IMG/VR virus record: IMGVR_UViG_2695420685_000022
Span: 1-34,422 of that record
Length of the DNA: 34,422 nt
Direction: 5' to 3' (one strand)
From: a virus
Taxonomy: Duplodnaviria > Heunggongvirae > Uroviricota > Caudoviricetes
Each line of letters starts with the position of its first letter. The first letter of the stretch is position 1. Below, piece by piece: positions 21,001 to 24,000 of this stretch. The position numbers were made by a program.

Positions 21001-24000
21001 AAACCGTATCTGACGCACTGAAAGCACTGAAAAAAGCCTCTTCACATGTGGTGGCAGCTCGCCTTGGAATCAGTCGTGAAGAGGCTGTCAACGAGCTGTG
21101 GGAACTCAAAAGAAAAGGCGTCGTTGATAAAACTGGTCACACCTGGTTTCTGGCTGGCGAAGGTGAATCCCGGGTAACCGAAGAGCGGCCAGTAAAATCT
21201 GAAGCACAGGATATGCTGACCGGGGAGGTCGAACAAAAAGTTACCGCAGACATGATGATTGAGTTTATCGGTCAGGATGGGGCTAAAACGTGTGAGGAAC
21301 TGGCGGGTAAGTTCGGTGTCAGTACTCGCAAGGTTGCTTCCACGCTGGCGGTGGTAACCGCAACGGGGCGGCTGGCACGCGTTAATCAGAACGGTAAATT
21401 TCGTTACTGCATGCCGGGCGATAATTTACCAGCAGAGCCGAAAGCCGCGCTGGTAACGGAAAGTGATGGTAAGGCCTTTCCTCAGCCAGCAGGTGCTGCG
21501 TTACCAGTCCGGGAAGCCGCAACACAGGAAGAAATTAAAACAGAAACTGTGGCGGACATTGTGCAGCCGTTGCCATCGTTTACCGAAACGCAAGCAGATG
21601 AGCTGATTTTTCCGTCCCTTCGCAGGGCAAACCTGGCGCTGCGCAGGGCGAAAAGTGATGTTCAGAAGTGGGAGCGAGTCTGCGCCGCGCTGCGGGAGCT
21701 GAACAAGCACCGGGATATTGTTCGACAGATTACTGATTCTTCCCGCCGTGTTGTATCGGAAAAGTGATTGCCGGAGGCGCTTATGGCAAAAGTATTTACA
21801 CAAGAAGAGCGGGAAAAAATTAAAGGGCAGGTTGTTGAACTTGTACGTCTGAGCGGTCGCGAGACGTTGCGGCAACTGGAAGCCAGGACAGGTGCGACAA
21901 GATATCTGATGAGTGTTCTCGCCAGAGAGCTGGTTGCCAGTGGCGATGTATACAACTCTGGTTACGGGTTATTCCCGTCTGAACAGGCGCGTAAGGACTG
22001 GCAAAATGCTCGCAAAAAACTCTCAAGGGCAAAGGTGAAGAAACCTGCAGTGGTTGATCCGGACCTTATCTGGTCGTTACCAGACGGCGAAATACGCCGC
22101 TACGACAGGCGCCTGAATATAATCTGTCGCGAGTGCCGGAAGAGCGAAGCTATGCAGCGTGTACTGGCATTTTATCAAGGAAATGTTAGATATTTTAGAC
22201 GTTACTAGATTAAAGAGCATTAGTTCAGATGTGAATTGACATTTTCATGGCGCAGGGTAGAGCCAGCGTGGTTGTCCGCTTTGCGTCAAAACCAGATATT
22301 ACCAGATTTAGACATATATTCCCGATAGCCCTGCTCTGATGCTACACTCTGTGCTATTTTCATGACCCCAATAAAAATATTTATGACTATTGCTGATTTC
22401 AAACGGCCTAAATTGGAGCTTCCAAACGGGGCAAACAAACTACTACTGCACTCTTGCTGTGCTCCATGTTCCGGTGAAGTGATGGAGGCGCTTCAGGCCT
22501 CGGGAATCGACTACACCATCTTTTTCTACAACCCGAACATTCATCCTCAGAAAGAGTATTTAATTCGTAAGGATGAAAATATTCGCTTTGCTGAACAACA
22601 CGGCGTGCCGTTTATCGATGCTGATTACGACACCGACAACTGGTTTGAACGTGCCAAAGGAATGGAATGGGAGCCTGAGAGGGGGATCCGTTGTACCATG
22701 TGTTTTGACATGCGTTTTGAGCGGACAGCGTTGTACGCTGCTGAAAATGGTTTCAGTGTGATCAGTAGTTCACTGGGCATTTCACGCTGGAAAAATATGC
22801 AGCAGGTTAACGAGTGTGGGCGGCGAGCTGTTGCGCATTATCCGGGTATGGTGTACTGGGATTATAACTGGCGCAAGCAGGGCGGCTCGTCCCGTATGAT
22901 TGAAATCAGCAAGCGCGAAAAATTCTATCAGCAGGAATATTGTGGCTGTGTGTATTCTCTGCGCGATACCAATCTACACCGCAAATCTCAGGGACGCCCT
23001 CTTATCAAAATTGGCCAACTCCACTACGGAAAAGAAGAGAAGGAGTGATTTTATGGATCACCTTTCTGATTGATTTCATATTGGCGAGGTGACGTGAGTT
23101 AAGTAGAATTGCTGCGGGTGCCTGAGGCTGTCTGCCTCAGGCATGAACACCAAAAGGCAGATAGAGAAAGCCCCAGTTAACATTACGCGTCCTGTAAGAC
23201 GCTCAACATTAATCTGAGGCATATGGATGCGGATGAAAGAATTAAATAAATTCAGAGTGATAGACCTCTTTTGTGGGGCAGGTGGATTATCTTATGGTTT
23301 TCTTCATGGAGAGATGTCTGACTACTTTGAAAGTATCCTTGCTATTGATAATAATGCTGCAGCTATAAATACCTACAATGCCAATTTTGGTTTGCATGGA
23401 GTTCAGGCAAATATTGAGGAGTGGGCATCCAGCAATACTGTTCCTGAGGCTGATGTGGTCATAGGTGGCCCCCCGTGTCAGGGATTCAGTTTATTGAATA
23501 AGAATCGTTATGGTGATCACCGAAGAGCATTGTGGGAGCCTTATATGGATGTCATTGAGCGTTCAAGGGCTTGTATGTTCGTCATGGAAAATGTCCCCGG
23601 ATTGCTGATAAGCGATGAGTTTGCGGACATTACGTTTAGAGCGAAATCCATGGGCTTTATTCTGCTTAATCCAATGGTGTTGAATACTGCTGACTATGGA
23701 GTACCTCAGACAAGAAAACGAACGATAGCAATCGGTATCAAACGAGAACTCTTCGATGTGCATAGTATTCCGGCGTTCCCGCCAGCACCAACGCATCGTT
23801 CCCCTGATAAGGATGTCGCTTTGCCTGAATGGGTCTGTACGCGTGATGCAATTGGTGACTTACCTGCTCCTGTTGGAACTGATATTCGTAATGAACTTCC
23901 TCCGCTGAACTTACATTTTGGGCGTAATCCCACTCCTGTTTCTCTGGAGCGATATAAAGCGGTTCCACCAGGAGGTAACCGTTTCGATTTACAGAAAAAA

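Follow-up and report, generated by a model that had tools for sequence, protein, structure and literature searches.

A predicted QueH epoxyqueuosine reductase carried as a probable cargo cassette by Rac/Qin-type prophages of Escherichia coli

An intact gene for a predicted member of the QueH family is carried by a lambdoid prophage of Escherichia coli, a host that already has the epoxyqueuosine reductase QueG. The gene lies in the IMG/VR virus record IMGVR_UViG_2695420685_000022, which was analyzed over its full length of 34,422 nucleotides (called the window below). We consider it probable that the gene stems from an Enterobacteriaceae queH taken up along with its own extended -10 element, that it now forms a moron cassette in Rac/Qin-type prophages, and that it would support B12-independent maturation of queuosine (Q).

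The enzyme itself is already known. The family, the structure and the reaction of QueH have been characterized, the gene is named by PGAP/RefSeq, and it has already been auto-annotated in about one fifth of E. coli genomes. It is the prophage carrier that appears undescribed. A literature search for phage- or prophage-borne QueH found no paper, and the survey by Hutinet et al. (2019) reported no QueA, QueG or QueH homologs in the viruses analyzed (PMC6884629).

Identity of the prophage gene

The longest open reading frame runs uninterrupted from window position 22362 to 23048 on the plus strand (228 codons). The earlier note had given these limits for the gene; the frame is indeed intact, but translation probably starts further downstream. 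The conserved N-terminus, which begins with MT[IV], starts at Met8 of the frame (position 22383). PGAP and the chromosomal homologs start at the same residue, nucleotide conservation among queH copies begins exactly at this ATG, and the seven residues before Met8 are not conserved, as they differ in phage HannyBb. Taken together, these observations make 22383 the probable true start, and 22362 only the start of the longest frame. No Shine-Dalgarno sequence is visible ahead of the ATG codons at 22362 and 22383. The gene and its surroundings are laid out as follows, where the promoter-like element and the cassette limits are those derived in the next section:

22383..23048, plus strand: queH coding sequence, 221 amino acids plus stop (longest open reading frame from 22362)
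22340..22348, plus strand: TGCTACACT, a promoter-like element of the extended -10 type, 43 nt upstream of the 22383 ATG
22312..23050, plus strand: minimal queH cassette ('moron') of about 740 bp, the stretch that travels together between differing prophage neighbors

The predicted protein matches the Pfam family PF02677 (QueH, formerly DUF208) with an E-value of 1.1e-65; the score is 221.5 bits, where the cut-off is 23.5. The match covers positions 1-174 of the 175 in the profile and thus the full length of the family domain. The Pfam scan detected no second domain in the product, including a cobalamin-binding one, and the NCBIfam models gave no match. In PHROGs, the product is assigned to phrog_3217, which has the label 'unknown function'. 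A search of PDB sequences returned only entries for T. maritima QueH (TmQueH), namely 7lc5 and its variants (E-value 8e-22 for 7lc5, residues 27-203, an alignment across the entire domain). On the DNA level, the gene is 100% identical to the RefSeq gene 'epoxyqueuosine reductase QueH' (WP_000150294.1) of E. coli O39:NM F8704-2.

The only cysteines of TmQueH are C9, C10, C87, C90, C169 and C171, arranged as CC..., CxxC and CxC. All six are kept in the prophage protein, where they align with C32, C33, C111, C114, C194 and C196. In an alignment of 10 sequences that spans homologs from gut bacteria (34-37% identity) and TmQueH (33%), none of the six varies; C152, which is also present in the prophage protein, is not conserved. 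The six cysteines of TmQueH are reported in the structure paper to bind a [4Fe-4S] cluster and an adjacent iron. Taken with the conservation, this suggests that the six cysteines of the prophage protein are metal ligands as well. Asp13 of TmQueH, which follows the motif CCAP, is replaced by Cys36 in the prophage protein (CCAPC). As far as the family was sampled, cysteine is the common state at this position (nine of the ten aligned sequences), and aspartate is found only in T. maritima. TmQueH mutants have been deposited for this residue (D13N, PDB 9DCO) and for the first of the six cysteines (C9S, 9D86).

The AlphaFold2 (AF2) model of the prophage protein (pLDDT 74.6, pTM 0.75) is consistent with the assignment. 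In a Foldseek search, the top five matches were all TmQueH entries, with target-normalized TM-scores of 0.74-0.77 and E-values down to 8e-10. The best of them was 7lc5 (TM-score 0.77, normalized to the target). The next matches were PP-loop/adenine-nucleotide-alpha-hydrolase (AANH) folds, for example TtuA and LarE, as expected for the QueH family.

Judged by sequence and predicted structure, the prophage gene encodes a genuine member of the QueH family (DUF208, PF02677, COG1636; T. maritima structures 7LC5, 7LC7 and 9DEU), with which it shares the full-length domain, the six cysteines and the fold. It differs from the known members in that the carrier is a temperate phage and not a housekeeping locus. 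The earlier note had based the assignment on a single motif and had proposed a Pfam search for DUF208 and an alignment of the cysteine ligands as checks. Both came out in its favor, and fold and orthology (see below) now support it as well.

Origin, cassette structure and distribution of prophage queH

Chromosomal queH genes outside phages are present in other Enterobacterales, and their products are 84-92% identical to the prophage protein. Identity is highest for Scandinavium (92%) and Kluyvera (91%), followed by Enterobacter (88-90%), Symbiopectobacterium (87%), Erwinia (84-86%), and Providencia and Proteus (84-86%). Gene neighborhoods were inspected in four of these genera, and none was phage-like. 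In Erwinia, queH is flanked by purL and glrK; in Providencia, it adjoins tmcA, with purC near; in Scandinavium, its neighbors are genes for an SDR dehydrogenase and for a DUF1543 protein; and in Enterobacter, they are mnmA and genes for a chorismate mutase and a GGDEF protein. Outside E. coli, the phage flanks of queH were shared only with E. albertii (100% identity).

Among prophage queH alleles, dN/dS is 0.05-0.07 at dS values of 0.27-0.46; between prophage and chromosomal copies, synonymous sites are saturated. The gene has therefore spent some time in the prophage pool, where it has evolved under strong purifying selection. As a separate observation, Pantoea dispersa (locus L167, proteins P0185-P0240) encodes both QueG and QueH on the chromosome, so the two reductases also occur together in one genome without any phage.

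The limits of the cassette were obtained by comparison with 80 prophage loci from IMG/VR and several genomes. On the left, homology between queH loci breaks off at position 22267 (HannyBb), 22312 (locus L067) or 22319 (locus L075). To the right of queH, about 380 extra bases directly follow the stop codon in both HannyBb and strain GF4. Altogether, the cassette was seen with at least four different right-hand neighbors, which elsewhere include hokD-rem or a DUF1971 gene, and with several left-hand ones.

The 45-95 bases that are retained upstream of queH contain the element TGCTACACT. Within it, GCTAC is invariant in all nine aligned queH upstream regions. The motif TGCTACA(A/C)T is found at -42 to -44 both in prophage copies and upstream of the chromosomal queH genes of Scandinavium, Kluyvera, Enterobacter and Symbiopectobacterium, and the bases that flank it are not conserved. 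The queH allele of GPEC657 has TACACA instead in the -10 motif. A generic two-hexamer promoter scan upstream of queH gave nothing convincing. It missed TGCTACACT because this element lacks a -35 hexamer, and the motif came from the comparative alignment alone. The promoter/terminator scan found no terminator-like site around queH, and Rfam no riboswitch or other RNA element before the gene. We conclude from the conservation of this one 9-nt motif that TGCTACACT is probably the promoter of queH itself. Its fixed spacing in prophage and chromosomal copies suggests that queH was captured with its native promoter and thus became a moron.

Self-promoted cargo genes are known from lambdoid prophages, for example bor and lom of lambda. 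Like these lambdoid morons and lysogenic-conversion genes, the queH cassette is compact, carries a promoter-like element, and sits between conserved phage modules with variable neighbors. Its cargo is different, as it is a predicted tRNA-modification enzyme and not a surface, virulence or exclusion factor.

Among complete E. coli genomes, queH was found in 995 of 5426 (18%), nearly always on the chromosome, and it is full length in 985 of the 995 carriers. The gene for QueG, which the earlier note had named as the enzyme that E. coli uses, is present in 5426 of 5426 genomes, and so alongside every queH. In IMG/VR, 189 viral contigs encode a QueH relative when motifs specific to the E. coli protein are used, and the best 80 of these 189 relatives are 100% identical at the protein level. 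With family-wide motifs, the count rises only to 195, so this search, which used a narrow motif set, extended to few or no further viral lineages.

A phage collection of 50,697 records was also searched. Its matches also include short fecal contigs and Staphylococcus and Listeria records. Among the inspected matches (HannyBb, two long fecal contigs and an Acinetobacter record), the only true phage with queH was HannyBb, a temperate Escherichia phage (induced or isolated) with 95% amino acid identity. Two long fecal 'Bacteriophage sp.' contigs and 'Acinetobacter phage MD-2021a' also have queH, but were rejected as fragments of bacterial chromosomes, as they carry genes for argininosuccinate lyase, ABC transporters, Tex, CorA and soxR. 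In the phage-labeled sequences CAKLQH020000001.1, MT835504.1 and MT835608.1 (loci L090-L092), queH stands amid housekeeping genes, and these are apparently bacterial contigs. One of them annotates queH as 'putative prophage protein', a label probably inherited from the annotation of the prophage copy in E. coli.

Prophage setting and neighboring genes

The window encodes an integrase, cI/cII-like regulators, O-like and DnaC-like replication proteins, DUF1627, DUF977 and DUF968 proteins, RusA and a Q antiterminator. This gene content agrees with the earlier description of queH as borne by a lambdoid prophage. More precisely, queH lies in the early-right arm of a prophage of the Rac/Qin type, with the DUF977 gene upstream of it and a hokD/sok-type leader downstream. 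The surrounding features are:

18036-18434, minus strand: repressor, followed by genes for cII-like, O-like, DnaC-like, DUF1627 and DUF977 proteins and then by queH
23051-23296: hokD/sok-type 5' leader (Rfam sok match, 61 bits; gathering score 59)
23221-25314: restriction-modification (RM) cassette, an insertion of low GC3 (0.30-0.37)
23233-24351: C5 cytosine methyltransferase, M.NgoMIV-like
24365-25243: NgoMIV-family endonuclease, R.NgoMIV-like

The R.NgoMIV-like gene is followed by genes for DUF968, RusA and the Q-like antiterminator.

The window contains two lambdoid early regions in tandem, at 75-18000 and 18036-34422. The first has the order integrase, cI-like, Ant, Rha-like, O-like, IstB/DnaC-like, DnaB-like, DUF968-like and Q. 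It ends with a truncated N6/N4 DNA methylase gene (15985-16383) and then a HigB/HigA pair (17280-17989), after which the second immunity and replication region begins. Direct repeats connect 15530-16138 with 27787-28394, 28674-29015 and 30581-30922. The two early regions and the direct repeats suggest either tandem prophages or a recombinant. None of the complete E. coli genomes covers more than 62% of window positions 10000-34422 in one place. DNA methyltransferase genes are duplicated between 28241 and 31833: one is a fragment (28241-28753) and two are full copies (28862-29920 and 30769-31833). Rfam matches to isrK and C4 antisense RNA (9722-9910 and 33543-33715) lie in or beside the gene for the Rha-like regulator, a region that corresponds to the anti-repressor control region of the P1/P7 type. 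A match to the small RNA STnc100 was found close to the end of the window.

The earlier note had connected queH with the tRNA genes of the phage, a link that is not borne out. Between the two full methyltransferase copies, the window encodes tRNA-Met(CAT), or Met/Ile2-type, and tRNA-Arg(TCT); the CAT tRNA is annotated as tRNA-Ile in a related RefSeq prophage. Related prophages have tRNAs for Ile, Arg, Thr and Gly. None of the tRNAs of the window and of the related prophages is a queuosine substrate; those of the window do not have the GUN anticodons of queuosine-carrying tRNAs.

The RM genes next to queH are a separate and later insertion, independent of queH, as indicated by their GC3 of 0.30-0.37 (versus 0.51 for queH) and by the interruption of the hokD/sok leader. 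The RM cassette cuts this type I toxin-antitoxin leader at 23220/23221. In most queH loci, homology to the window extends up to 23220 and resumes at about 25315. The leader is itself a remnant in the window, as the hok/mok coding part has been lost from the locus. The last 75 or so nucleotides of the Rfam sok match fall inside the methylase gene, and this part is spurious. The same leader occurs without queH in about 3900 E. coli genomes.

These data bear on a role of the DUF208 protein in 7-deazaguanine DNA modification or defense, in concert with the adjacent NgoMIV-type RM pair, a possibility that the earlier note had also raised. Only adjacency speaks for it: besides the window, 57 complete E. 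coli genomes have queH and the RM pair in the same arrangement, out of some 985-995 genomes with queH. The pair is thus missing beside queH in about 94% of the queH-bearing genomes, and its later insertion points in the same direction. Moreover, no homologs of Tgt/DpdA, QueA, QueC, QueD, QueE or FolE were found among the 36 larger open reading frames of the window with Pfam or PHROGs. The phage clusters for 7-deazaguanine DNA modification (Hutinet et al. 2019), in which DpdA occurs with FolE, QueD, QueE, QueC and others, are likewise cases of phage-borne queuosine-pathway genes. However, they use the early part of the pathway and a DNA transglycosylase that acts on phage DNA, whereas prophage queH would encode a lone tRNA enzyme of the late pathway, without a transglycosylase. 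As the queH product is also a near-ortholog of housekeeping tRNA enzymes, we regard a function in DNA modification or defense as extremely improbable.

Proposed function and its alternatives

A passage of PMC4646009 that cites Frey 1988 describes the last step of E. coli Q synthesis as cobalamin-dependent, and QueH has been described as a non-orthologous replacement of QueG (PMC5372724). The predicted reaction, the conversion of oQ34-tRNA to Q34-tRNA, is the same for QueG of E. coli and QueH. The two enzymes are nevertheless unrelated: QueG contains the domains PF13484 and PF08331 and needs B12, while QueH has neither domain.

Prophage QueH most likely acts on host tRNA modification. According to our proposal, the source of queH would be an Enterobacteriaceae chromosome, from which the gene came along with its native extended -10 promoter. 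It would now travel as a small self-contained cassette in Rac/Qin-type lambdoid prophages, both in E. coli and in E. albertii, where it occupies the early-right region. Tgt and QueA of the host would make oQ34 on the tRNAs with GUN anticodons (tRNA-Asn, -Asp, -His and -Tyr). Prophage QueH, as a cobalamin-independent Fe-S tRNA epoxyqueuosine(34) reductase, would then reduce the epoxide to queuosine, using its Fe-S center and a host reductant. A lysogen could in this way complete queuosine with or without B12, because QueG needs cobalamin, and E. coli, to our knowledge, cannot synthesize cobalamin de novo. In this proposal, activity of QueH in the E. coli host and expression from its own promoter in the lysogen are inferred, as would be any benefit when B12 is limiting.

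The same enzyme might instead serve the phage, if queH were transcribed from pR as a delayed-early gene after induction or infection, so that Q-tRNA is topped up for phage translation. The location of queH would fit: it lies inside the early-right operon and on the same strand, with the replication genes on one side and the Q antiterminator on the other, no terminator-like site was found around it, and the free phage HannyBb has retained the gene. However, the conservation of the promoter-like element with chromosomal homologs argues for expression independent of pR, the phage tRNAs of the window are not Q substrates, and the difference between oQ and Q may not matter within a single lytic cycle. 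We give this explanation a modest chance, and note that benefits to the phage and to the lysogen are not mutually exclusive. It is improbable, in our judgment, that neither partner gains and that queH is a functional but largely neutral passenger, spread by linkage to a successful prophage replication module. Such a passenger would explain why the upstream DUF977 or DUF1627 genes are 97-99% identical in nearly all copies from IMG/VR and genomes, and why the gene persists in hosts that always have queG. Part of the 18% prevalence could be due to hitch-hiking, because one and the same DUF977 replication module accompanies most queH copies. On the other hand, dN/dS stays at about 0.05 while synonymous divergence reaches 0.46, almost all copies are full length, and the cassette has changed its neighbors on both sides. 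A benefit to the lysogen is favored over a benefit to the phage or to neither, because the presumed native promoter is conserved and the gene is under purifying selection.

A more far-reaching version of the benefit to the lysogen is that prophage queH acts as a lysogenic-conversion gene, which uncouples queuosine maturation from B12 and from its receptor BtuB. BtuB is also a receptor for phages and colicins. If this were true, about one fifth of E. coli strains would keep fully Q-modified tRNA in B12-poor niches or after loss or repression of BtuB. This might change the translation of genes with biased NAU/NAC usage, or the sensitivity to tRNases that are specific for Q anticodons (colicin E5). 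We consider this version doubtful, and the links to BtuB and colicin E5 are speculation.

In itself, prophage queH is an ordinary housekeeping enzyme gene in an unusual carrier, and redundant with its host counterpart. If the enzyme is active, it would nonetheless be a rare case of a tRNA-modification enzyme that has been spread by a temperate phage. In that case, some 18% of the strains of E. coli would differ from K-12 in that their queuosine is not cobalamin-dependent, which is simple to test. This would bear on Q/oQ experiments in E. coli and on differences in tRNA modification from strain to strain.
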